A stretch of 30,211 bases of DNA, taken from Sporichthyaceae bacterium. Lineage in GTDB: Bacteria; Actinomycetota; Actinomycetes; JACCUZ01. Below are positions 5,498-30,211 of this stretch, in pieces. The translations under genes and the position numbers were made by a program. Location: NCBI GenBank assembly GCA_040004585.1, contig JBDUAP010000001.1:1-30211 (forward strand). The letters are read 5' to 3'. The notes beneath the pieces were generated by a model. That model worked only from the letters and a program-made list of their open reading frames with translations, was not told where the DNA came from and searched no databases. The stretch's first letter is position 1. Each line of letters begins with the position of its first letter.

Positions 5498-8056
5498 GTG
5501 CTAGCCCGAGCAAACATGAACCTCACCCGCGACGAGGCCGTGGCCCGTGCCCGGGTGCTGTCTGTGGACACGTACGACGTCGAGCTGGACCTCAGTCGGG
5601 AGGAGCCGACATTCCCGTCCACGACCGGCGTGCGCTTCCGCTGCACCGAGCCCGGAACGAGCACGTTCATCGACCTGGTGGCAGCGTCGGTGCGCGAGGT
5701 CGAGCTCAACGGCCGCACTCTCGACCCGGCCGAGGTCTTCGACGGCACCCGGATCCGGCTGGACGACCTGGCCGGAGTGAACACGCTGCGGGTGGTCGCC
5801 GACTGCCGCTACATGAACACCGGCGAGGGCCTGCACCGCTTCATCGACCCGGTCGACAAGGCGGTCTACCTCTACACGCAGTTCGAGGTGGCCGACTCCC
5901 GGCGCATGTTCGCTGTCTTCGAGCAGCCCGACCTCAAGGCGAGCTTCACGTTCACCGTGCTCGCACCGGCCGAGTGGCAGGTCATCTCCAACGCGCCGAC
6001 CCCGACTCCGGAGCCGGGTTCCGGCGGGCTGGCGACATGGCGGTTTCCGACCACCCAGCGGATGTCCTCCTACATCACCGCCCTGGTTGCCGGCCCCTAC
6101 CACCGGATCGAGGACCAGTACCGCGCGGGAGACCGCGTCGTACCGCTCTCGCTCTACTGCCGCGCCTCGCTCGCCGAACACCTCGACGCCGACGTCCTCT
6201 TCGCGGAGACCCGCCAGGGTTTCGAGTTCTTCGAGCGGATCTTCGACTACCCCTACCCGTTCGAGAAGTACGACCAGCTGTTCGTGCCGGAGTTCAACGC
6301 CGGCGCCATGGAGAACGCCGGCTGCGTCACGCACAACGAGGACTACGTCTTCCGGTCGCGGGTTCCCGAGGTCGCCTACGAGCGGCGCGCGGTGACGATC
6401 CTGCACGAGATGGCGCACATGTGGTTCGGCGACCTGGTCACGATGACGTGGTGGAACGACTTGTGGCTCAACGAGTCGTTCGCCGAATACGCCAGCACCC
6501 TCGCGGCTGCCGAAGCCACGAAGTGGCGCTCGGCCTGGACGACCTTCGCGAACACGGACAAGACGTGGGCCTATCGGCAGGACCAGCTCCCGTCGACCCA
6601 CCCGATCGCTGCCGAGATCAACGACCTGGAGGACGTCGAGGTCAACTTCGACGGGATCACCTACGCCAAGGGCGCATCGGTGCTCAAGCAGCTCGTGGCC
6701 TGGGTGGGCCGGGAGCAGTTCCTCGACGGCATCCAGCGCTACTTCCGCAGCTACGCGTGGGGCAACACGACGCTCAGCGACCTGTTGGGCAAGCTCGAGG
6801 AGACGTCAGGGCGCGACCTGAAGGCATGGTCGGCGGAGTGGCTGGAGACGGCCGGGGTCAACACACTGCGAGCGGACTTCCGGCTCGACGCCGAGGGACG
6901 GTTCACCCGCTTCACCGTGGCGCAGCAGGCCCCGGACGCGTGGCCCACCCTGCGGTCGCACCGCCTCGCCATCGCGCTCTACGACCGGGTGGACGGCAAG
7001 CTGGTTCGTCGCACGCGGATCGAGCTGGACGTGACGGGGGCGCACACCGACGTACCGGACTTCGTGGGTGAAGCCCAGCCCGACCTCGTGCTGCTGAACG
7101 ACGATGACCTGACCTACGCGAAGGTCCGGCTGGACGAGCGGTCGCTGGCCACGTTGATCGAGGGCATCGGCGACTTCGAGGACAGCCTCCCGCGCTCCCT
7201 GTGCTGGGCGGCGGCGTGGGACATGACCCGCGACGGCGAGATGTCGACGACCGACTACGTCACCCTGGTGCTCAGTGGCGTGGGCCGCGAGACCGACAGC
7301 TCGGTCACCCGCACCGTGCTGAGGCAGGCCGAGACAGCCACGATGCTTTACTCCGACCCAGCCGATCGCGAGGCCTCCCGGCGTCGTCTCGCCGAGGGGT
7401 TCTACACGCTGATGCGCGCCGCCGACGCCGGCAGTGACTCTCAGCTGCAGCTGGCTCGGGCGTTCGCGGGCGTCGCCTGCACCGATGAGCACCTCGCGCT
7501 CGTTGCCGGCGCGCTTGACGGCTCGGCACTCATCGAGGGCCTCACGATCGACACCGACCTGCGCTGGCACCTGCTGCACCAGCTCGCCGCGGCCGGTCAG
7601 GCCGACGCGGCGGCGATCGAAACCGAGGTCACTCGCGACGACACGGCCACCGGTCGACGGCAGGCCGCCGCCGCACTCGCGGCGCGACCATTGCCGGAGG
7701 CCAAGCAGGCAGCGTTCGACTCGGTCATGAACGACGACTCGCTGCCCAACGCCATCCAGACCGCGACGGTCGGCGGATTCGCCCAGCCCGTCCAGGAAGA
7801 CCTGCTCCGGCCGTTCGTGGCGCCCTATTTCGCGCGGCTGCGCGAGATCTGGGCGGAGCGGACGAACGAGACCGCGCAGAACATCGTGATCGGCCTTTTC
7901 CCGACGCTGATCCCGGAACAGTCGACGGTGGACGCGGCCGACGCGTGGCTCGCCGACAACGTGGACGCGGTGCCGGCACTGCGCCGGCTCGTTCTCGAGT
8001 CGCGCGACGGCGTCGCCCGCGCTCTGCGGGCACAGGCGCGCGACGCCCAGAGCTAA
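5498..8056 (+). CDS. pepN: Aminopeptidase N (M1 family)
   Basis: NLTRDEA N-terminus, GAMEN, HEMAH...WLNE (HExxH-x18-E), FDGITYAKG. GTG 5498 has AGGAG 7 nt upstream (alternative ATG 5516). Confidence 0.96.
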   Translation: MLARANMNLTRDEAVARARVLSVDTYDVELDLSREEPTFPSTTGVRFRCTEPGTSTFIDLVAASVREVELNGRTLDPAEVFDGTRIRLDDLAGVNTLRVVADCRYMNTGEGLHRFIDPVDKAVYLYTQFEVADSRRMFAVFEQPDLKASFTFTVLAPAEWQVISNAPTPTPEPGSGGLATWRFPTTQRMSSYITALVAGPYHRIEDQYRAGDRVVPLSLYCRASLAEHLDADVLFAETRQGFEFFERIFDYPYPFEKYDQLFVPEFNAGAMENAGCVTHNEDYVFRSRVPEVAYERRAVTILHEMAHMWFGDLVTMTWWNDLWLNESFAEYASTLAAAEATKWRSAWTTFANTDKTWAYRQDQLPSTHPIAAEINDLEDVEVNFDGITYAKGASVLKQLVAWVGREQFLDGIQRYFRSYAWGNTTLSDLLGKLEETSGRDLKAWSAEWLETAGVNTLRADFRLDAEGRFTRFTVAQQAPDAWPTLRSHRLAIALYDRVDGKLVRRTRIELDVTGAHTDVPDFVGEAQPDLVLLNDDDLTYAKVRLDERSLATLIEGIGDFEDSLPRSLCWAAAWDMTRDGEMSTTDYVTLVLSGVGRETDSSVTRTVLRQAETATMLYSDPADREASRRRLAEGFYTLMRAADAGSDSQLQLARAFAGVACTDEHLALVAGALDGSALIEGLTIDTDLRWHLLHQLAAAGQADAAAIETEVTRDDTATGRRQAAAALAARPLPEAKQAAFDSVMNDDSLPNAIQTATVGGFAQPVQEDLLRPFVAPYFARLREIWAERTNETAQNIVIGLFPTLIPEQSTVDAADAWLADNVDAVPALRRLVLESRDGVARALRAQARDAQS

Positions 8057-19433: not shown

Positions 19434-19856
19434 TCAGTCGACCGGTTGGAGGTAGCGCGCGAGGAACGCGCGCTCCTCGGGTGAGACCCGTCGTGGCCGC
19501 TGCGCCGTCAGGTCGAAGGGCACTAGCAGCGACGCCGCCCGGGCGAACACCGTGTCGTCGTCGTGCACCTCGTAGCGAATCTCGAAGGACGCACCCTTGA
19601 TCGCGCCGGTCCACAGGTCGATGTCCACGCCGCCCTGGTGATAGACGAGCGGACGGCGGTAGTCGATCTCGTGCCGCGCGACCAGCACACCCTCGGAGAG
19701 CGCCTTCGCCCCGAGCTCGGCGCCGAGCGTGAAGAGCATGTCCACCCGCGCCTCTTCGAGGTAGGTCAGGTAGACGACGTTGTTGACGTGACCGTAGGCG
19801 TCCATGTCCGACCACCGCATCGGGCAGTGGAAGGTGTGTCGCTTGCCGCCGGTCAT
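19434..19856 (-). CDS. Acyl-CoA thioesterase (4HBT/hot-dog fold)
   Basis: RWSDMDAYGHVNNVVYLTYLEEAR, RHEIDYRRPL; start trimmed to ATG 19856. Confidence 0.9.
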   Translation of the reverse strand: MTGGKRHTFHCPMRWSDMDAYGHVNNVVYLTYLEEARVDMLFTLGAELGAKALSEGVLVARHEIDYRRPLVYHQGGVDIDLWTGAIKGASFEIRYEVHDDDTVFARAASLLVPFDLTAQRPRRVSPEERAFLARYLQPVD

Positions 19857-19872
19857 TCGCGAGCGCTTTCGA

Positions 19873-21537
<1,665 letters not shown>

Positions 21538-21618
21538 GCAACCAGCCTAGGTGGCGAATGGCTCACGCCCGAATCGCCGGCCGCGGGAGAGAACGAACAG
21601 CCCCGGCGACAGTGCCCG

Positions 21619-22125
21619 TCAGGCCGCGTCCTGGCCGACGGGCGGGGCGTCCTCGTCGGCCGGCTCGGCGGGTCGAGGTCCGAGCACCTCGCCGGTCTCG
21701 GGGTCGAACGGCTCGTCGAACTCGCTGGCGATCTCGCCGATCAGCTGTCGGTCCGCGCCGGTGCTCACCCCGGCCTTCACGAAGGTGGAACGACCCCACG
21801 AGATGTCGTGGCCGAGCGACCGGGCCTCGATCTCGACCGCGGTGCGCATCACGCCGTCCTTCTCGTAGGAGCTCACCCGAAGCCGACCGTGCACCAGCAG
21901 TGGCTGACCCTTCTCGACCGACTCGACGGCGTTCTCGGCCATCGACCGCCAGCAGGTGACCGTGTAGTAGACGGTGTCCCCGTCGCGCCAGGCATGCAGC
22001 TCCTTGTTGTAGCGCCGCTCGGTCGACGCCAGCCGGAAGCTCGCCACCCGCACCCCCGCCGCCGTCACGCGCATCCGCGTCTCCGACGCGACGTTGCCGG
22101 CCACCGTCACCAAAGTCTCGTTCAC
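21619..22125 (-). CDS. ssb: Single-stranded DNA-binding protein, second paralog (SsbB-like)
   Basis: VTVAGNVA, VASFRLASTERRY, YYTVTCWR..AEN..S..KGQPLLVHGRL, GHDISWG; AGGAGG SD 5 nt before GTG 22125; no canonical C-terminal IPF tip. Confidence 0.88.
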   Translation of the reverse strand: MNETLVTVAGNVASETRMRVTAAGVRVASFRLASTERRYNKELHAWRDGDTVYYTVTCWRSMAENAVESVEKGQPLLVHGRLRVSSYEKDGVMRTAVEIEARSLGHDISWGRSTFVKAGVSTGADRQLIGEIASEFDEPFDPETGEVLGPRPAEPADEDAPPVGQDAA

Positions 22126-22144
22126 ATCAGCCTCCTGATCGCTT

Positions 22145-22166
22145 GTCGGCGGTCCGCACCGCCGAC
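22145..22166. repeat. 9-bp perfect hairpin upstream of ssb
   Basis: GTCGGCGGT-ccgc-ACCGCCGAC, about 20 nt upstream of the ssb start. Confidence 0.55.
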
Positions 22167-22213
22167 CGCGAGGCTCGCCCGTCCGCACCCGAAACCGGAA
22201 GGCCACAACCGCC

Positions 22214-22252
22214 GGCTGTGGACGACAGCGACGTGGGCGCGGCTGTGGATCG
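22214..22252. promoter_or_regulatory. Two DnaA-box-like motifs upstream of ssb
   Basis: Direct repeat GGCTGTGGA at 22214 and 22241. Minus strand reads TCGTCCACA (1 mismatch to TTGTCCACA) and CGATCCACA (2 mismatches to TTATCCACA). Confidence 0.35.
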
Positions 22253-22263
22253 GGCCGCGGCGA

Positions 22264-23904
22264 TCAGCCGGCTCGGGCGCGATCCAGGGCGGTCCGGGCG
22301 GTCTCGTGCCGGGCCAGCTCGGCCTCCACGGGTCCGATGACCAGCCGGTCGGCCACCTCCTCGATGCCCCGCCGCAGGCGGGCCTCGGCGTGCCGACGAC
22401 GACGCCGGGCACCTCTCCGGGCGAGCAGCCGGCCGACCGAGGCGATCAGCAGCCCGAGCAGGACGCCCCCGAGGAAGAGCAGCGTGGGCACGGAGAAGCC
22501 GTGCCAGTCGGGAGTCTTCGGCTCGGGCAGCCGCAGATAGCTGCCGAACGCCAGCAGCCCCAACCAGCCCGCTCCCAGCAGCGCAGCTGCGACCAGCAGC
22601 CACTGGACCACCCCGGTCAGCCGCCACCACATCGGCGTCCGGTCGACGCCGAGATCGGTGCGGATCACGGTCACATCCAGCTCGTCACGCAGGTCCTTGG
22701 CTCGCTGGTCCGCTGCCCGCCGTACGGCCTCCTGCCAGCGCGGTGGCAGGCCCATCCCGGCCGCATCCACGACGCCGCGTACCGCTGTCTCCACCTGCGC
22801 CCGCTGAACCGGCGTCGGCTCCGGGACCGACGAGCGGACCATCGCGCGCACCTCGCGCCGCTCACCCGCGCCGAGCCGCAGCCGGCGCAGCGGGTCGGGC
22901 CGCAGCTTGCGTAACCAGCGGGTGGGTGGCCAGCCCAGCACACCGGCCGACCGCAGCTGCCACGACTTCTCGACCGCCTCGCCGATAACGGGCACGCCTG
23001 CAGACCCGGCGAGCGCCTGCACGAGCTGGGTGCGTTCGGGCCCGCCGATCCCGGCCGGTGTGGCCTCGGCGACCTGGGCGGAGAGCTCGTCGGCAACCGC
23101 CTCGACATCGGCAACCAGCCGGTCATTGCGGGCCCGGCGGCGGCGGACCGCGTCGGCGAGCGCCACGCGCAGCGCATCGACTCCGGCGCCGGTTCGCGCT
23201 GACGTCGTCATCAGCTTGGCCCGACTGAGCCCGTCCTCGTCGATCAGTCGGCGCAGGTCCTCGGCGCAGACTGCTGCGGCGAACGGGTTGAGGGTGTCGG
23301 TCTGGTTGAGCACGAGCAGGGTGACCGCGTCATGCCCGGCCAACTTGCGGAGGTAGCGCTCGTGCAGCGCCGCGTCGGCGTACTTCTGCGGGTCGACCAC
23401 CCACACCAGAAGGTCGACCAGGTCGACCAGCCGGTCAACTTCCAGCCGGTGCTCGGTGGCGGTCGAGTCGTGGTCGGGGAGGTCCAGCAGGACGAGGCCC
23501 TCGAGGTCGCCCTGCTGCGCGAGGTCGAGGTCGCTGTGCTGCCAGGCCGTCTGCCGCCGCGGGACTCCCAGCCACTCGACGAGTGGAGCGGCGCCTTCGA
23601 CCCCCCATACGCAGGCTTGTGCCCGCGACGTCGTCGGCCGGCGCACGCCGACCGGCGAGATGTCGGCACCGGATAACGCGTTGAACAAGGACGACTTGCC
23701 GCTGCCGGTGGCTCCCGCGAGGGCCACGACTGTGTGCTCGCCGGAGAGCCGCAACCGCTCCCCCGCCCGGGCCGCCACGGCTTCCGCCCGGCCAGCCACC
23801 TCGGGGTCGATCCGGCCGTCGGCGGCGGCCAGCGTCTCGTCGAGGGCGATCAGCATCGACGGCAGGTCGGCGCGCCGGTGCCGGCCGCGCAGGAGTCGGC
23901 TCAC
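22264..23904 (-). CDS. Dynamin-like GTPase with C-terminal TM hairpin (DynB/YfjP-like)
   Basis: GATGSGKSS P-loop, RRPTT, LLDLPD, WVVDPQKYAD, LNQTD; two TM helices near the C-terminus; GTGA overlap with the upstream GTPase. Confidence 0.85.
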   Translation of the reverse strand: MSRLLRGRHRRADLPSMLIALDETLAAADGRIDPEVAGRAEAVAARAGERLRLSGEHTVVALAGATGSGKSSLFNALSGADISPVGVRRPTTSRAQACVWGVEGAAPLVEWLGVPRRQTAWQHSDLDLAQQGDLEGLVLLDLPDHDSTATEHRLEVDRLVDLVDLLVWVVDPQKYADAALHERYLRKLAGHDAVTLLVLNQTDTLNPFAAAVCAEDLRRLIDEDGLSRAKLMTTSARTGAGVDALRVALADAVRRRRARNDRLVADVEAVADELSAQVAEATPAGIGGPERTQLVQALAGSAGVPVIGEAVEKSWQLRSAGVLGWPPTRWLRKLRPDPLRRLRLGAGERREVRAMVRSSVPEPTPVQRAQVETAVRGVVDAAGMGLPPRWQEAVRRAADQRAKDLRDELDVTVIRTDLGVDRTPMWWRLTGVVQWLLVAAALLGAGWLGLLAFGSYLRLPEPKTPDWHGFSVPTLLFLGGVLLGLLIASVGRLLARRGARRRRRHAEARLRRGIEEVADRLVIGPVEAELARHETARTALDRARAG

Positions 23905-25592
23905 CGAGCGTCCTCGATGTCCTGTACGGCGGCGCGCAGCGCGGTCCCGGCGTTCTCGTCGACGGCAACGGCGTCCAGCCGCTCGGTGAAGCGGCTCCGT
24001 TCACCTTCGAGCAACAGGCCGACCCGGCGGTGCAAGTCGGCCCGCGCCGTTGCGGCGAGGTCACGGACGGCTTGGTCACCGAGCACAGCCTCGAGGATCT
24101 TCTGGCTCAACGCTGAGGCACCGCCGGCCACTGCCAGCTCTCCCGCGACCAACCCACCCGTGTGCGCGAAGACCACGATCATCGCCATCAGGCCGAGCCC
24201 GTTGACACCGAACGCGAGGTAACGGGCCGTAGCCCGCTTGCCCTGGCCCTGCTCACGGACCAGCTCGAGGACATAGCCCTGCCACTCGCGCACGGCACGG
24301 GCCGTTGCCTCGGCCAACTCAGGAGAGCCGTGCCGCAGGTCGTCTCCGCCGAGCAAAGTCTCCCCGGCCGGGTCGTCCCGCCAGGCGGAGCCGGCCTGGT
24401 CGGCTGCCTCATCGGCGGCTGCGCGGACCAACGCCTCGACGCCGGTCTCCAGGGCCTCGGCGAGCTCGGTGCCGGGCTGGGGGCGACCGCGCAGCGCCGA
24501 GGTCACCCTGTCGCGCACCCGGCCGACCTTCGACTCGAGTGCGCGCATCAGCTCGCCGGTGCCGACGAACTCCTGCCAGCGGGCGAGCACTTCGCCGCGC
24601 AGAAGTGAGCCGTCACCACTGGCGGCGTCGACCCGGATGAGCGCGTCGTCGTACGCGTCGTCGACCTCGCGGCGCAGGCGCGCGACCGCATCGGCCTGGG
24701 CGTCCGCGGATGCTGCGAGGCGGAAGACGCGCCCACCGAGCGACCGGATGGCGCCGGCGAGGGTGTGCCGCACCACGTTGGCGCGCACGGTCGCGTCGGT
24801 CGCCAGGCCATGAAGCCACCCGCGCAACGGCTCGATCACCTCGCGCGGCAGCATCCCGTCGTGCGGCGTGGTCTCGGGCACCACGAACAGCGGCGCACCG
24901 CCGAGGCCCTGTTCGGTCAGCATGGTTGCCAGGTCTGCACGAACCTCGTCCGTTGCACCCTCCGGCACCCGGTCGAGGACAACGGCGACGGCAGTGCCGC
25001 GCGTCACCGCGGCACGCAGGAAGTCCCACGGCACCGCATCGGCGTAGCGGGCGGCCGTCGTCACGAAGATCCACATATCGGCGGCGGCGAGCAGCTGGGT
25101 GGCGAGCTCGCGGTTGGCCGACACGACCGAGTCAATGTCGGGGGCGTCGAGAAGTGCCAGGCCGGCCGGGATGCGCGCGCTGCGCACGAGCTGGAGGCTG
25201 GCGGGATCACTGCTGCTTTCGCTGCTGCGCTCGAGACCCGGCAGGACGCGCCGCTCGTCGAACCACGCCGCGTCGGCCGGGTGGTGGGCGAGCACCGCGG
25301 AGCGGGTGGTCGGGCGCAGGACGCCGGCCGCGCTCACCCGGGCGCCGACCAGGGAGTTGACCAGGGTGGACTTGCCCGCGCCGGTGGGGCCGACGACGAC
25401 GGCGAGCACCGGCGCGTCCAGCCGTCGAAGACGCGGCAGCATGTAGTCGTCGAGCTGGTCGGCGATCTCCTGGCGCAGCCGTCGGGCCGCCTCGGCGTCG
25501 GCGAGGTCGAAGGGGACGCGCAGGTCCGTCACCTGCGCGCCGAGCCGCTCGAGGGCCGCGAGCAGGGGTGCGCTCTCCGCCCCGGCTGTCAC
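23901..25592 (-). CDS. Dynamin-family GTPase (DynA-like)
   Basis: GPTGAGKST, LRPTT, LLDAPDIDS, VTTAARYAD, VLDR, amphipathic/TM paddle region. Start is GTG 25592 or TTG 25601. Confidence 0.85.
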   Translation of the reverse strand: MTAGAESAPLLAALERLGAQVTDLRVPFDLADAEAARRLRQEIADQLDDYMLPRLRRLDAPVLAVVVGPTGAGKSTLVNSLVGARVSAAGVLRPTTRSAVLAHHPADAAWFDERRVLPGLERSSESSSDPASLQLVRSARIPAGLALLDAPDIDSVVSANRELATQLLAAADMWIFVTTAARYADAVPWDFLRAAVTRGTAVAVVLDRVPEGATDEVRADLATMLTEQGLGGAPLFVVPETTPHDGMLPREVIEPLRGWLHGLATDATVRANVVRHTLAGAIRSLGGRVFRLAASADAQADAVARLRREVDDAYDDALIRVDAASGDGSLLRGEVLARWQEFVGTGELMRALESKVGRVRDRVTSALRGRPQPGTELAEALETGVEALVRAAADEAADQAGSAWRDDPAGETLLGGDDLRHGSPELAEATARAVREWQGYVLELVREQGQGKRATARYLAFGVNGLGLMAMIVVFAHTGGLVAGELAVAGGASALSQKILEAVLGDQAVRDLAATARADLHRRVGLLLEGERSRFTERLDAVAVDENAGTALRAAVQDIEDAR

Positions 25593-25679
25593 AAGGTCCA
25601 ATCCTGTCGCACCCGAGCGCGTTTTCGGGGCTCTGCGGTGCGCGCCGCTCCACAGCTTGCCGATTACCCTCGATGCCAG

Positions 25680-25752
25680 GCGCCCGTAGCTCAGCGGATA
25701 GAGCGACTGCCTTCTAAGCAGTTGGTCGCAGGTTCGATCCCTGCCGGGCGCG
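25680..25752 (+). tRNA. tRNA-Arg (anticodon TCT), CCA not encoded
   Basis: Acceptor GCGCCCG/CGGGCGC, D-arm GCTC..GAGC, anticodon arm ACTGC-CTTCTAA-GCAGT (TCT at 25713-25715), T-arm GCAGG-TTCGATC-CCTGC. Confidence 0.97.
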
Positions 25753-25788
25753 CGCGATGGTGTGGCGACCTGAGCTGGAGACCTGAGC

Positions 25789-25833
25789 GGGTCCGCGCCG
25801 CCGCTGTTGCGCCCCGGACGGTGGCGCGGACCC
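25789..25833. terminator. GC-rich stem-loop between convergent tRNA-Arg and peptidase-like gene
   Basis: GGGTCCGCGCCGCCG (25789-25803) pairs with CGGTGGCGCGGACCC (25819-25833), 15 bp with one G-U pair. Confidence 0.6.
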
Positions 25834-25879
25834 TGCCACGACTAACGAGCATGCGTTCGCAACGTCACGCGCGCCTTGA

Positions 25880-28222
25880 TCAGGGAGTTGTCGTCGACTC
25901 CGGCACCGTTGCATCGGTGGAGCCGGCGGTCGGAGCAGGGCTCGTCGGAGAGGCGGGATCGGTCGTCTGGCCGGTGGTCGGTTGACTGCTCGGATCGGTG
26001 CCGGAACTTGGCCCGGCCGTGCCGTCGCCGCCCGGTCCCGCCGACGCGCCGGGGACCGACCCGGGATCGCCGTCGCTGCTGCTGCCGCTCGCCGCAGTCC
26101 CGGCCTCGCTCTCGACGATCGTCCGGATGGCCTGCTGGAACTTGTTCAACTCGGTCTGGAGCTGGCTCAACGGCACGCTCTCGATCCGGTCGCCGAACGC
26201 CAGGAGCTGGGCCCACACCCGGTTCAGCTCGGCCATGGCCGCCGGGCTCAGTGCATCGGGAAGGGTGAGCACCAGCTGCTTGGCCAGCGCGTAGGTCACG
26301 CACAGGACACACTCGTAGTTGACGGCAGCGGCGATGTTCTCGGGCACGACGACGTCAGCCTGCCCGACGATGAGCACTACCTGGAAACCGACGGCGACCG
26401 TCCGGCAGGCGACGCAGCTCGCAAAGGCGTAGGCCTCGTTGCGCTGTTGCGCGTCTGTCCCGTCCGCCCACACGAGCGCGAACGCCACGTCGTAAAACGA
26501 CGATCCGTCTTTGGTGTTGGCGGCCATCGCCTGGTTGTCGTCCGCGTTGACCGGCGCGTCCGGCTTGTTGAAGGGGAAGACCCAGGCCGGCTCCCCGCTA
26601 CCGTCGTGCGGCAGCAGGATCAGGGCGAGCTTGGGCTTGTCCTTGGTGCCCAGGGCGGTGGGGGTGGCGACGACCGATGTCGCGGCAGAGCCGACCTGCC
26701 CTTCCCGAAGGGCGGGAGCCGAGCCGAGACTGGTCTGCGAGACTGCAAGCGAGAGTCCGTCCAGCAGCGTGCCGCGTTCATCGGGCTGGATCGGCCGGTA
26801 CTGGCCGTTTGGCCACCACACCGAGAACAGCCCGAGCAGCAACGCGGCCGCGAGCAGGCCAGCAAGTCCGCGACGGGTCGGGTGGCCTTCGGTCGCCGTC
26901 CACACCTTCTTGGTGGTGCGCCGGACCATCCGCGTGAGCATGTAGGCGACGCCGGCCACGGGAACAGAGATCGCGAGGATCGCGAGGGCCCGCGAGCCAA
27001 CCCCGAAGAAGTCGCCGGCGGCCAGGTAGTCGTTGAGCGAGCTCGCCTGTTTGCGGAGGTTGTCCCACGCCGTGGCCAGGAATCGCGGCAGGACGAGCAC
27101 CATCATGGGCGCCGAGAGCGCGAGCAGAGGTACGACGACCAGCACCCAGGTCGTCACAACGACCCGGGCCCACGGCTTGAGCACGTTGCTCTCTGGCTTG
27201 CGCCAGTGCGTCGGCAGCAACCCGACCAGGGTGGGCTTGATGTGAGAGTAGAGATCGGGGACGCCGGTCAGGTCGGCCAGGATGTGGTAGCCGTCGAAAC
27301 GAACAAGTGGTGCGAGCTGTCGCAGCATCTGCAGCACCTGGGTGGCAATGACCAGCAGGAGGGCGTCCCAGCCGCTGACGGCCCAGATCCCGAGCATCGC
27401 GAGGGCGAAGATCGCGTTGAAGTACAGGCCTCCGAGGTCGACCCTGACCCGGCCTGCCCGTCCGAGGCTGTAGGAGTCGTTCACGTCGGTGTAGAAGGCT
27501 GGCCAGACCAGGTAGAGCCCCGTGCCCATCGCGCCCGGTGTGGCACCGCCATAGCGGCACGCCGCGGCGTGGCCGAACTTATGGAAGCCGGCCGAGAGGA
27601 CCGTGAGGGCAAAGACCAACAGGATGAGCCCCGGCTTGTCGAAGGCTTGGTGAGCCGCGCCCGCGAGTCCCGTCTCGAACAGGACCCAGCCTGCGGCCAC
27701 GGCAAATGCGATGCCGACCACAGCCACCACGACGGGGGCGAAAAGAGCCGCGAACGGCGCCGTGATGCGCCGGGTCTTCTCGGGGTCGGACACGACAAAG
27801 CGCCAGCGCAGGCCCAGCAGCGGGTTGGACTTCTTGACCTCGGGCTCAGAGCCGTCGGCCTCGCGCAGAACGCCGAGCGGACGCAACTTTTCCTCGGTCA
27901 CGTGGCGGACGTCATCGGCGCTCGCGACCTTGCCGAACTTCTCACTGACGACGGATGTGATCTCTGCGTGGTCGCGGCGGCTGTCGATCGCCTCGAGCAC
28001 GAGATAGCGCAGTCTGGTGAGCTGGATCGTCTGCCCGTCGGCGCGGCGCACCAGGGATGGCGCCTTCCGGTAACCAGAACCGGGTAGCTCACCGACCAGC
28101 TCGACACCTGTAGCCCGGACCGGCACTCCGTCGCCCGGGGACGCCTCGGCCGGACCCCTCGGCGTGGTGGCCGAGGGGTCCGAGGGCGCACGCGTCCCTG
28201 GCGACGGAGTAACCGCGGTCAC
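25880..28222 (-). CDS. PqqD/RRE-like domain + M50/YydH-like membrane metallopeptidase (HExxH mutated to HKFGH) + C-terminal 2xCxxC domain
   Basis: N-terminal three-strand/three-helix pattern (LVRRADGQTIQLT..YLVLEAID....AEI...VSE..G); FHKFGHAAAC, AFYTDV, RVDLGGLYFN, PLVRFDGYHILADL; multiple TM helices; C-terminal CVAC and CVLC; Pro/Thr/Ser tail. Confidence 0.8.
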   Translation of the reverse strand: MTAVTPSPGTRAPSDPSATTPRGPAEASPGDGVPVRATGVELVGELPGSGYRKAPSLVRRADGQTIQLTRLRYLVLEAIDSRRDHAEITSVVSEKFGKVASADDVRHVTEEKLRPLGVLREADGSEPEVKKSNPLLGLRWRFVVSDPEKTRRITAPFAALFAPVVVAVVGIAFAVAAGWVLFETGLAGAAHQAFDKPGLILLVFALTVLSAGFHKFGHAAACRYGGATPGAMGTGLYLVWPAFYTDVNDSYSLGRAGRVRVDLGGLYFNAIFALAMLGIWAVSGWDALLLVIATQVLQMLRQLAPLVRFDGYHILADLTGVPDLYSHIKPTLVGLLPTHWRKPESNVLKPWARVVVTTWVLVVVPLLALSAPMMVLVLPRFLATAWDNLRKQASSLNDYLAAGDFFGVGSRALAILAISVPVAGVAYMLTRMVRRTTKKVWTATEGHPTRRGLAGLLAAALLLGLFSVWWPNGQYRPIQPDERGTLLDGLSLAVSQTSLGSAPALREGQVGSAATSVVATPTALGTKDKPKLALILLPHDGSGEPAWVFPFNKPDAPVNADDNQAMAANTKDGSSFYDVAFALVWADGTDAQQRNEAYAFASCVACRTVAVGFQVVLIVGQADVVVPENIAAAVNYECVLCVTYALAKQLVLTLPDALSPAAMAELNRVWAQLLAFGDRIESVPLSQLQTELNKFQQAIRTIVESEAGTAASGSSSDGDPGSVPGASAGPGGDGTAGPSSGTDPSSQPTTGQTTDPASPTSPAPTAGSTDATVPESTTTP

Positions 28223-28231
28223 GAGTGCTGG

Positions 28232-28891
28232 CTACTGGGTGATGTCGGACGTCTGGTCGGCGTTGGCCTCGGCCGTCACGTCGTCCAGGTGCTGGTTGAT
28301 CGAGACATCCTGGTCAGCAAGCGCCGCAGAGGACGACAGCGCCGACGCGATGTTGGCCGAGACGGCCGCGTCGATCGGAGCCGCGACGTTCGCATTGGCA
28401 GCCACCGCACCGGCGACCGGTGCCGCGATGTCGGCGTCGATGCCGATGTCGGCGTCGATGTTCAGCAGGTCGCCATCCAGCAGTGCCTCGGGGCTCGGCG
28501 TCGGTGCGGTCACGCCGCCCGTGCCGCCGGTTGGAGGCGGCGGAACGGCAGTGCCGCCCGCGTCGAAAGTGTCGTTGCTCTGGTCGATCGTCGAGTCCTG
28601 CGGGGCGTTGGCGATCGCCACGCCGGAGATGCCCTGGTCGATTGTTCCGTGCTGGGTGGCCATCGCGGCGGATTCAGACCCGATAGACAACACGTTCGCG
28701 GAGACCGCGGCGTTGATCGGGGCTGCCACGTTCGCGTTGGCGGCGCCCGCCAGGTCGATCGGCGCGGCCACGTCGAGTGCGGCGTCGAGATCAATGTTGA
28801 GGTCGAGCAGGGAGATGACCTCCTTGTTCGGCAGCGCGGTGCCAGCCTCGGCTGCGAGGTCCTCGCTGGAAAGGCGTGGTTCGTCGCTCAT
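28232..28891 (-). CDS. 219-aa acidic leader-bearing repeat protein (putative precursor/structural subunit)
   Basis: ATG 28891 with GGAG 6 nt upstream plus AGGAG further up. Leader MSDEPRLSSEDLAAEAGTALPNKEVIS, then two ~78-aa repeats split by a Gly/Pro/Thr linker. Stop is 9 nt before the next gene's GTG. Confidence 0.8.
   Translation of the reverse strand: MSDEPRLSSEDLAAEAGTALPNKEVISLLDLNIDLDAALDVAAPIDLAGAANANVAAPINAAVSANVLSIGSESAAMATQHGTIDQGISGVAIANAPQDSTIDQSNDTFDAGGTAVPPPPTGGTGGVTAPTPSPEALLDGDLLNIDADIGIDADIAAPVAGAVAANANVAAPIDAAVSANIASALSSSAALADQDVSINQHLDDVTAEANADQTSDITQ
28235..28810 (-). repeat. Intragenic duplication: repeat 1 (aa 28-104, 28580-28810) and repeat 2 (aa 142-219, 28235-28468)
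   Basis: Hand alignment needs one single-residue gap; core AANANVAAPI[N/D]AAVSAN is 16/17 identical. Confidence 0.85.
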
Positions 28892-28983
28892 GTTCTGCTC
28901 CGTTTCTCCTGGAATCGTGTCCGTGAACCTGCCTGCACGCGACCCGCAGGGGCGAAACAGGATTGACCCGATCGGGCGAGTGC

Positions 28984-29352
28984 TCAGGCGGAGATCGACA
29001 GCCCGATCGCGAGCCCCGCTGCGGCGAGCCCCAGACCGCCCACCACGCTGAGTCCCAGGGTGGCCACCGCGCGCGACGGCGTCCCCCGCTCCACGAGGGC
29101 GACGGTCTCCCACGCGAGCGCCGACACCGTCGTGAAGGCGCCGCAGAATCCCACACCGAGGAGGGTCACCACGTCGTCGGGCGTGGCAGCGGACAGCCCG
29201 ATCAGCAGCCCGAAGGCGGCGCTGCCCAGCAGGTTCACGGTGAGGGTGCCCCACGGCAGCCGGTCGCCAAAGCGGGCTGTCACTGCGACATCGACGAGGT
29301 AGCGGCAGGCGGCGCCCACCGCGCCGCCGATCGCCACGAGTGCCCAGGTCAC
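28984..29352 (-). CDS. crcB: Fluoride channel Fluc/CrcB subunit
   Basis: GGAVGAACRY, LPWGTLTVNLLG, GFCGAFTTVS; GTGA overlap with the upstream crcB. Confidence 0.88.
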   Translation of the reverse strand: MTWALVAIGGAVGAACRYLVDVAVTARFGDRLPWGTLTVNLLGSAAFGLLIGLSAATPDDVVTLLGVGFCGAFTTVSALAWETVALVERGTPSRAVATLGLSVVGGLGLAAAGLAIGLSISA

Positions 29353-29798
29353 CAGGCAGTCCCGGCATCAGGGCCGGCCAGAGCCCGGCGCGAGAGCAGG
29401 AGTCCGAGCCAACAGCCGACCAGGATCGCCGCGAGGTTGGCAGCGACATAGCCCAGCGCGAGACCGGGCCGGTCGAAACGGACCAGCTGCACCGCGTCGA
29501 CCGAGAGTGTCGAGAAGGTGGTGTAGCCACCCAGCAGGCCGGTGCCCAGCAGCGGCCGGGCGAAGCGGTCGCGCGGGAAGCGCGTGGCCAGGACGGCGAG
29601 CAGTACGCCGAGCAGGGCAGCCCCAGACGCGTTGGTCACCAGCGTCGACCAAGGCCACTGATCTGCCCGATGCGGCCAGAGGTCGGCAAGGCCCGCTCGG
29701 GCGAGGGCACCGACGGCGCCGCCGAGGCCGACAACCGCAGCAGCGACCAGCGGCGAGGGGCGCGCGGCGGGTGCCGGCAGGTCGGGATCGACGCTCAC
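29349..29798 (-). CDS. crcB: Fluoride channel Fluc/CrcB subunit
   Basis: GGAVGALAR, WPWSTLVTNASG, GTGLLGGYTTFS; start GTG 29798 overlaps the upstream stop. Confidence 0.88.
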   Translation of the reverse strand: MSVDPDLPAPAARPSPLVAAAVVGLGGAVGALARAGLADLWPHRADQWPWSTLVTNASGAALLGVLLAVLATRFPRDRFARPLLGTGLLGGYTTFSTLSVDAVQLVRFDRPGLALGYVAANLAAILVGCWLGLLLSRRALAGPDAGTAW

Positions 29799-30211
29799 GC
29801 GCAGCAGGTGTCCTCGAGCGAGGTGGCCCGCCAGCTGCGGACCCCCTCGACCGCGGCCAGTCCGGCGACCACCAAGGCGGCTGCGGGGTCGGCCCACCAC
29901 CAGCCGAACGCTGCGTTGAGGCCAAGGCCGACGAGGACGACAGCCGACAGCACGGCGCACAGCTGGGTCTGCTGTGCCTCCCGCTCCTGGGCCCGGCTGC
30001 CGAGGGCTGGCGCCAGGCGCCGCTTGGCCCGGGCGAGCAGGGGCATCACCAGCAACGACAGGGACGCGAGCACGATCCCGACCGTGCTGGCGGAAGGCTC
30101 GTGGCCACGCACCAGGTTCAGAACGGACTGCACGCCGACGTAGCCGGCAAGGGCGAAGAACGAGATCGCGAGCGCTCGGGTCGCCCGTCGGTCGTCGGGT
30201 TGCCGGCAGCC
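29795..30211 (-). CDS. CDF-like (TMEM163-type) cation transporter, 5'-truncated by window edge
   Basis: Open to the edge: ..ALAISFFALAGYVGVQSV..EPSASTVGIVLASLSLLVMPLLARAKRRL..QTQLC..GWWWADPAAAL..EG..W..DTCCA. Confidence 0.8.
   Translation of the reverse strand, partial: GCRQPDDRRATRALAISFFALAGYVGVQSVLNLVRGHEPSASTVGIVLASLSLLVMPLLARAKRRLAPALGSRAQEREAQQTQLCAVLSAVVLVGLGLNAAFGWWWADPAAALVVAGLAAVEGVRSWRATSLEDTCCA

Follow-up and report, generated by a model that had tools for sequence, protein, structure and literature searches.

A leader-tagged acidic repeat protein encoded next to a predicted membrane protease in a Sporichthyaceae bacterium

In the present study, we analysed a stretch of 30,211 nucleotides (hereafter the window) from a Sporichthyaceae bacterium (GCA_040004585.1, contig JBDUAP010000001.1, positions 1 to 30,211 of the forward strand), in which two adjacent genes lie on the minus strand, as do all of the features of the pair described below. 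The small gene (28232-28891, stop codon included; P0001) encodes a protein of 219 aa, starts with ATG and is preceded by a GGAG ribosome-binding site 6 nt upstream (28898-28901), with a second AGGAG at 28906-28910. The large gene (25880-28222, stop codon included; P0002) starts with GTG 9 nt after the stop of the small gene and encodes a protein of 780 aa. The 723-aa gene call on record for it (P0123) cuts off conserved N-terminal residues. The neighbours are two crcB genes, a tRNA-Arg and two dynamin-like GTPases, and neither a modifying enzyme nor an ABC exporter is in the cassette. A sequence-only reading of the window had described the leader, the repeats, an RRE-like domain (about aa 34-119), an M50/YydH-like core, two CxxC motifs, the tail and the lack of these enzymes. 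These observations were confirmed, with one correction, since the metal motif of this copy reads HKFGH and not HExxH.

The small protein begins with an acidic leader (aa 1-27; 28811-28891), which has 6 D/E against 2 K/R and a pI of 4.1. In an alignment of 60 sequences, L20, P21, K23, E24, V25 and S27 are invariant, and the leader end (LPxKEVxS) is presumed to be the sequence recognized by the RRE, with cleavage inferred near S27/L28. The 192-aa core contains 26 D/E and no K/R/C/W/Y, and its peak 19-residue hydropathy is 1.43, so there is no TM segment or Sec-type h-region; no Tat signal was found either. Repeat 1 (aa 28-104; 28580-28810) carries an amphipathic LDLNIDLD strand, two AAP(I/V) motifs and two Q-x-x-x-I-x-Q motifs. 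It is followed by a Pro/Thr/Gly linker of variable length (aa 105-137; 28481-28579) and by repeat 2 (aa 138-219; 28235-28480), which ends in an invariant C-terminal Gln. Repeat 1 aligned against repeat 2 with a score of 166, against 43.5 +/- 7 for shuffles. The protein has 3819 relatives at E<=0.001, but searches of Pfam, NCBIfam and PADLOC gave no family for it. AlphaFold2 with a 60-sequence alignment gave no confident fold (pLDDT 47.6). Only 4-7% of the words of the small gene occurred in RNA runs, which does not show its expression.

The N-terminal domain of the large protein (aa 32-123; 27854-28129) is predicted to be a cytoplasmic winged helix-turn-helix with a three-stranded sheet and three helices (pLDDT about 85-93). 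By fold comparison, it best matched the RREs of lasso, sacti/ranthipeptide, lanthipeptide, cyanobactin and microcin enzymes and PqqD (VIA-align Z 6.3-8.9), including lasso B1 6jx3 (8.9), TbiB1 5v1u (8.4) and PqqD 5sxy (7.3). The top Foldseek hit was 5v1u_B, TbiB1 (prob 0.97, TM 0.62). At the sequence level, the window's own domain gave no hit to PqqD models (PF05402, TIGR03859), while 15 of 39 family N-domains hit PF05402 (best 1.3e-5) and a split homologue scored 0.0015-0.015. A profile of the domain found nothing among PDB sequences, and only fold comparison showed the RRE. In lasso-peptide B1/B2 pairs an RRE likewise hands a leader to a peptidase, but B2 is a soluble cysteine protease; here there is no lasso cyclase and the peptidase is of the intramembrane metalloprotease type.

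The RRE domain is followed by a site-2-protease-type core (aa 148-322; 27257-27781). It is homologous to the daptide peptidase MpaP/DapP (NF041824, 8.7e-27, aa 54-326 against profile positions 17-291) and to the epipeptide peptidase YydH/LiaK (NF058609, 1.9e-10, aa 200-322), although the scores are far below the cut-off for the former (94.2 against 300 bits) and below it for the latter (40.8 against 225 bits). Structural comparison with MjS2P (3b4r, Z 6.8), SpoIVFB (8vjl, 6.7) and RseP (7w6z, 6.7) gave middling values over 113-131 residues. The window protein has no hit to Pfam PF02163 (M50), and a split homologue scored 0.073. The second motif, RFDG in this copy (aa 308-311), follows P-x-x-R-(F/Y/A)-D-G-Y in 120/120 sequences (119 relatives plus the window's own), with D310 and G311 invariant. 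The regulatory site-2 proteases resemble the family in the predicted fold of the membrane core, at these middling values, and share its two metal-binding motifs, but here there is no PDZ or CBS domain and the small protein is not a membrane-anchored anti-sigma or pro-sigma factor.

The first metal-binding motif (27569-27583) reads HKFGH in this copy (E215K), whereas 119/119 and 80/80 relatives read HE[FL]GH. Sequencing error was considered and rejected after contigs from four metagenomes were compared. Base 27580 is T (Lys) in the window and in metagenome runs X1 and X3, which come from different studies, and C (Glu) at 152x in run X2, a near-identical soil population. Hence the change is a real polymorphism. 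Mutation of the HExxH Glu abolishes activity in characterised site-2 proteases, and this allele is probably proteolytically inactive, so the module may not work in this organism. Whether the cassette is here a recently disabled remnant is an evenly balanced question. The large protein deviates at five columns that are >=95% conserved, four of them in the RRE, but this is not an outlier (rank 49 of 59). Both ORFs are intact, the small protein shows no deviation at conserved columns, and the Lys allele persists in nature, in one of the two metagenomes on a diverged haplotype. This possibility concerns only this allele and is compatible with the interpretation given below for the family.

Three further TM helices (aa 350-470; 26813-27175), seen in hydropathy and in the AlphaFold2 model, with an Arg/Lys-rich loop at aa 431-449, bring the predicted total to seven and place the C-terminal part outside the cell. 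This part is a predicted beta-rich domain plus helical hairpin (aa 525-712; 26087-26650), which is extracytoplasmic, since stand-alone versions carry signal peptides. It carries two CxxC motifs at hairpin turns, C603/C606 (26405-26416), which is flanked by strands, and C638/C641 (26300-26311), and both are present in 120/120 sequences. The domain matched no family in Pfam, NCBIfam or PADLOC, and PADLOC gave no hit to a defence model for either protein. The ESM Atlas gave only the family's own unnamed clusters. A search of representatives returned 1675 clusters at E<=0.001, many of them fragments, and indicates family size only. The database name 'peptidoglycan-binding protein' was rejected because no domain match supports it. 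The protein ends in a disordered Pro/Thr/Ser/Gly tail (aa 713-780; 25883-26086; pLDDT about 30) without a sortase motif. The segment around the second CxxC, VVVPENIAAAVNYECVLCVTYALAKQ, weakly resembles the core of the small protein. A profile of the peptide core scored this hairpin above composition-matched shuffles, always at the same place, but by only 2-13 bits. The likeness was not significant by hhalign (P 0.083), and an hmmsearch of the repeat unit against all ORFs of the genome found only the small protein, the one other hit (contig C417) being an off-frame ORF.

Co-occurrence of the two genes, whose absence had been named beforehand as a ground for refutation, was examined across genomes. 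The pair is a widespread two-gene unit of soil actinobacteria and is adjacent, on the same strand and with the small gene upstream, in 78 of 78 testable species genomes out of 80, and three genera showed it with unrelated flanks. In a sample of 301 genomes, 21 had both genes, 5 had the protease only and none had the small gene only. The system was not found in 8 sampled genomes of one large-genome family (f3, 7-10 Mb). No third gene is conserved within 3 kb in 80 genomes. In small-genome lineages the same system is split into 2-4 tandem leader peptides of 64-79 aa with the same leader-core junction (EREEMSL|INAN) and core motif, a protease of about 600 aa and a separate signal-peptide CxxC protein, often directly downstream.

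Fusion of an RRE to the N-terminus of an intramembrane site-2 protease is not new, as it is the published architecture of MpaP, which acts as leader peptidase in daptide maturation (Ren et al., 10.1101/2023.03.08.531785). As in the daptide system (precursors MpaA1-3), the precursor gene lies directly upstream, the leader is acidic with a short conserved motif next to the core, and split relatives have several tandem precursors. However, MpaB/C/D/M enzymes and an ABC transporter are lacking, the core ends in Gln and not in the class-defining Thr, the substrate is a 219-aa protein with two repeats, and the protease carries three more TM helices, the CxxC domain of about 190 aa and the Pro/Thr tail. 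In the epipeptide system (YydF with YydH/LiaK; KEGG K16922, the source of the name 'putative peptide zinc metalloprotease protein'), a homologous HExxH membrane peptidase core also lies next to its peptide substrate. Here neither the radical-SAM epimerase YydG nor the YydIJ transporter is present, and the YydH model (246 positions) aligns only with the membrane core and not with the RRE or the outside domain. Membership in both systems was thus rejected. The substrate family, the CxxC domain and the lack of modifying enzymes matched no family library or paper searched, and literature searches for this family returned only the daptide work.

We suggest, with moderate confidence, that the pair is the fused form of an uncharacterised, leader-guided proteolytic maturation module of Actinomycetota. 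In this view, the RRE domain docks the invariant end of the leader (ALPxKEVxS), and the adjoining site-2-type zinc protease cuts the leader off near S27/L28. This would release a very acidic, Ala/Asn/Asp/Ile-rich product of roughly 190 residues, made of two copies of a unit that other lineages encode as separate peptides. The product probably acts together with the outward-facing CxxC domain, which points to a cell-envelope role rather than an antibiotic one. The predicted domain folds and homologies, the strict adjacency, the fission and fusion pattern, the conservation of the leader and the outside location of the CxxC domain were demonstrated by our analysis, whereas leader binding, cleavage and its site, localisation of the product, any export route and any assembly are inferred, although leader-guided cleavage is well supported by inference. 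The small protein has no Sec or Tat signal and the cassette has no exporter, while the daptide and YydF systems use ABC transporters, so a route to the outside is left unexplained.

It is also possible, but unlikely, that the outside CxxC domain senses an envelope or redox/metal cue and gates the protease, as PDZ domains do in RseP, and that the protease cleaves or destroys an acidic protein which acts inside the cell, with nothing exported. Site-2 proteases classically work in this way with an active site facing the cytoplasm, and the absence of an exporter and of a signal peptide and the weak likeness of core and C-terminal domain agree with it. However, the small protein has no TM anchor, DNA-binding domain or sigma/anti-sigma features, no regulator gene is linked, and its replacement in split systems by tandem paralogous short peptides is a layout typical of precursor peptides and not of regulators. 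A classical secreted bacteriocin or RiPP-type signalling peptide, modified and exported by proteins encoded elsewhere in the genome, is likewise doubtful. The nearest characterised relatives of the protease do mature antimicrobial or signalling RiPPs, and the leader plus core architecture and tandem precursor paralogues fit this reading. But no modifying enzyme, immunity gene or transporter is conserved within 3 kb in 80 genomes, the core is long, strongly negative and free of Cys and Lys, and a dedicated extracytoplasmic partner domain co-evolves by fusion and fission. Furthermore, the sequences are 60-70% identical across families of Actinomycetes with many invariant positions, unlike fast-diverging bacteriocins.

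The interpretation offered by the sequence-only reading, that RiPP-style leader recognition is repurposed to cleave and/or export a large unmodified structural protein, whose polymerisation into a surface fibre or functional amyloid is templated or anchored by the C-terminal domain, was only partly supported. The RRE fold, the homology of the core to daptide and YydH leader peptidases, the adjacency of the genes, the invariant leader end and the extracytoplasmic domain support it, while export and fibre or amyloid formation remain inference, and the 'large structural protein' is better read as a doubled, fused form of a family of short leader peptides. The imperfect Asn/Gln/Ala-rich repeats and a partner with a weakly similar hairpin, reminiscent of a nucleator, recall functional amyloids and surface-layer peptides (curli CsgA/CsgB, Fap, Streptomyces chaplins), but there is no Sec signal and no dedicated outer secretion machinery, the product is strongly acidic rather than hydrophobic, and no confident beta-solenoid is predicted. 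It is an unlikely, though not excluded, possibility that the module is a self-contained, Sec-independent pathway in which a RiPP-type leader delivers the acidic beta-repeat protein to the protease, which both removes the leader and hands the product across the membrane, and in which the CxxC domain seeds or anchors a cell-surface polymer. If true, this would be a new kind of envelope-building or secretion system in Actinomycetota.

The cassette occurs in culturable genera (Arthrobacter globiformis, Pseudarthrobacter, Micromonospora, Pedococcus, Nocardioides, Saccharothrix) and is therefore open to direct test. The natural Glu/Lys polymorphism at the catalytic residue offers a ready-made pair of active and probably inactive alleles, and hints that loss of function is tolerated in soil populations. 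RRE domains are treated as markers of peptide natural-product pathways, but here an RRE-protease is paired, in at least 574 species genomes, with a protein-sized, highly conserved acidic substrate, inferred to be unmodified, and with an outward-facing domain that matches no known family. That would extend leader-guided maturation beyond small modified peptides, possibly into cell-envelope biology.

On the minus strand, a 219-aa ORF (28232-28891) is followed after 9 nt by a 780-aa ORF (25880-28222). The first starts at an ATG with GGAG 6 nt upstream, and the second starts at a GTG. The small protein has an acidic leader of 27 residues (6 D/E, 2 K/R), and its 192-residue core has 26 D/E and no K, R, C, W or Y. 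No segment is hydrophobic enough for a TM helix or signal peptide. The two halves of the small protein align with a score of 166, against 43.5 +/- 7 for shuffles. The observation made in the sequence-only reading was confirmed, and every element that it had listed for the large protein (a PqqD/RRE-like N-terminal domain, an M50/YydH-like membrane peptidase core, a further TM helix, a C-terminal beta-type domain with two CxxC and a Pro/Thr/Ser tail) is present. The only correction is that the metal motif in this copy reads HKFGH. The gene call on record for the large protein (723 aa) starts 57 residues downstream of the GTG (the region concerned is 28052-28222, minus strand) and would remove invariant residues of the first RRE strand (G44-L57), so the longer start, 9 nt after the upstream stop, fits the family better.

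A search of NCBIfam showed homology of the large protein to the daptide intramembrane metalloprotease (NF041824, 8.7e-27, aa 54-326) and to YydH/LiaK (NF058609, 1.9e-10), but both scores are far below the family cut-offs, and Pfam found nothing. An AlphaFold2 model built on 59 sequences (mean pLDDT 67.6) is confident for aa 35-130 and for the membrane core. An exhaustive structural comparison with this model placed aa 32-123 with RRE domains, namely lasso B1 6jx3 (Z 8.9), TbiB1 5v1u (8.4), TigE, MibB, CteB, PqqD 5sxy (7.3), MccB, ThcOx, LynD and TbtB. The top Foldseek hit for the whole model is TbiB1 bound to its leader (prob 0.97, TM 0.62 by target). In addition, 15 of 39 family N-domains hit Pfam PqqD, the best at 1.3e-5, although the protein of the window itself gave no Pfam hit. 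Residues 137-322 superpose on MjS2P, SpoIVFB and RseP at Z 6.7-6.8. Hydropathy, the model and a strongly basic loop at aa 431-449 give seven predicted TM helices, with the N-terminus in and the C-terminus out. In the model, the region aa 525-712 is beta-rich, with each invariant CxxC at a hairpin turn, and is followed by two helices and a disordered Pro/Thr/Ser tail. This region matched no known fold or family in our searches, and it has 1675 cluster representatives at E<=0.001.

Both proteins have thousands of relatives. In Micromonospora, Pedococcus and Arthrobacter, the pair is adjacent while the flanks are unrelated. A scan of species genomes found at least 574 with a relative of the large protein, and the 80 best include Arthrobacter globiformis, Pseudarthrobacter, Pedococcus, Phycicoccus, Nocardioides, Blastococcus, Saccharothrix, Actinokineospora, Planosporangium and Plantactinospora. 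In 78 of these 80, the two-repeat gene lies directly upstream on the same strand, and in the other two the contig ends at the large gene. Apart from the pair, no gene recurs in more than 21 of the 80 loci, and that one reflects Arthrobacter synteny. In an even sample of 301 genomes of the phylum, 21 have both genes, 5 have only a protease relative and none has only the small protein, and these tallies are floors. Protease relatives that cover only the RRE and core regions also occur without any match to this precursor family, in the genomes with our codes G295 (contig C53, 10345-11697), G113 (contig C1, 1975923-1977188), G190, G252 and G054, and these presumably serve other precursors.

In the window, two tandem, overlapping CrcB (fluoride channel) genes lie directly upstream of the cassette (28984-29960, minus strand), and a cation-efflux gene lies at the end of the window (29795-30211). 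On the other side, tRNA-Arg(TCT) (25680-25753) lies on the opposite strand, 127 nt (25754-25879) beyond the stop codon of the large gene. Two overlapping genes for dynamin-family GTPases of 546 and 566 aa (22264-25601, minus strand) are followed by an SSB-family gene (21619-22206). Very long ORFs antisense to real genes, at 19804-22914 (+) and 25982-28087 (+) (1036 and 701 aa), are most likely artefacts of the high G+C content and not genes. The G+C of the cassette (26000-29000; 0.67-0.69) is lower than that of its neighbours (0.72-0.74). Since the flanks differ between genera, the pair may move as a unit, but no integrase was seen.

In several small-genome families, the same system is unfused. 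It consists of 2-4 tandem genes for 64-79-aa peptides, with leader ...LSxEELEQQGSEEL(P/G)EREEMSL and core (I/V)NANVAAPVNAAVAANVLSDxxVAYAxAxQxxDIDQS, a ~600-aa RRE-protease and a separate ~250-aa protein with a signal peptide, the two CxxC and a Pro/Thr tail, which is often encoded directly downstream of the protease. At one such locus (L006), two small ORFs of 83 and 111 aa, Val/Ser/Thr-rich and matching no family, lie between the four tandem peptide genes and rplA (5656-6264, minus strand). The leader-core junction of the short peptides (REEMSL-INAN) aligns with KEVISL-LDLN of the window protein, and each window repeat contains the short core plus a degenerate extra copy of it. In the sample, every fused protease has a two-repeat precursor (9/9) and every split protease has short tandem peptides (10/10), although relatedness confounds this association. 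The fission/fusion pattern ties the three parts into one system. It also shows that the 219-aa protein, which had been read from the sequence as a large structural protein, is a doubled, fused member of a leader-peptide family.

In the published work on daptides (10.1101/2023.03.08.531785), MpaP has an RRE fused N-terminally to an intramembrane site-2 protease and is described as an 'RRE-dependent intramembrane peptidase' that removes the leader, and daptide clusters are stated to encode also modification enzymes and ABC transporters. Hence, the RRE-S2P fusion itself is not new. The precursor family, the absence of any modifying enzyme or exporter, the extra TM helices and the CxxC domain appear to be undescribed, as no family library searched names them and our literature searches on them found nothing. 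A conventional bioactive peptide remains possible as the product of this system, but we consider it unlikely.

We also examined whether the C-terminal domain resembles the product. Alignment of the C-domain profile against the small-protein profile by hhalign paired VGQADVVVPENIAAAVNYECVLCVTYALAKQLVL with AANANVAAPIDAAVSANIASALSSSAALADQDVS, giving 32% identity over 34 columns but P = 0.083. An HMM of the repeat unit found nothing but the small protein among 26,228 ORFs of the genome. Against composition-matched shuffles, 71% of 48 real C-domains exceed the 95th percentile and about 40% exceed the 99th. The match always falls on the second CxxC hairpin, but the scores are only 2-13 bits and the sequences are related. 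This resemblance is therefore rated as suggestive and not established.

All 119 relatives from the protein search and all 80 species genomes read HE[FL]GH, and only the window reads HKFGH, in which the catalytic Glu of HExxH is replaced by Lys (codon 27578-27580, minus strand). Contigs of four soil metagenomes were aligned to the region. Position 27580 is T (Lys) in one of them (X1), which is possibly the source sample, and in a second (X3), which comes from another study and lies on a haplotype with 8 other differences in 502 nt. In a third (X2), the position is C (Glu) at depth 152, on a contig that is otherwise identical over 328 nt. The variant is therefore a real, shared polymorphism and not an assembly error. 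By analogy with other zincins it should abolish catalysis, and inactivity of this allele is regarded as likely, though with no more than even confidence. The small protein shows no deviation at conserved columns, while the large protein shows five (L72R, G81S, A89T, L108V, E215K), which is not an outlier. Eleven soil and sediment runs filed as metatranscriptomic, two of them flagged as probably DNA, hold only 4-7% of the sampled words of the small gene (28232-28891), probably the conserved AANANVAAPI core of relatives. This is only a weak hint that family members are transcribed in soil, and it does not show expression of the window's gene.

Taken together, the interpretation in the sequence-only reading, in which RiPP-style leader recognition would serve to cleave and/or export an unmodified protein that is then polymerised at the surface, is supported only in part. 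The idea of a fibre or functional amyloid is neither supported nor excluded. The small protein has no confident predicted fold. The homologies, the gene adjacency, the fission/fusion pattern and the catalytic-site polymorphism were established by the present analysis, whereas leader binding, cleavage, any export and the joint action with the outside domain are inferred. The export route is the main gap in this model, and regulated proteolysis of a cytoplasmic protein remains possible, although it seems improbable to us. The best-supported mechanism, which we hold with moderate confidence, is that RRE-guided removal of the leader by the S2P core would release an acidic two-unit product that works with the outside CxxC domain.
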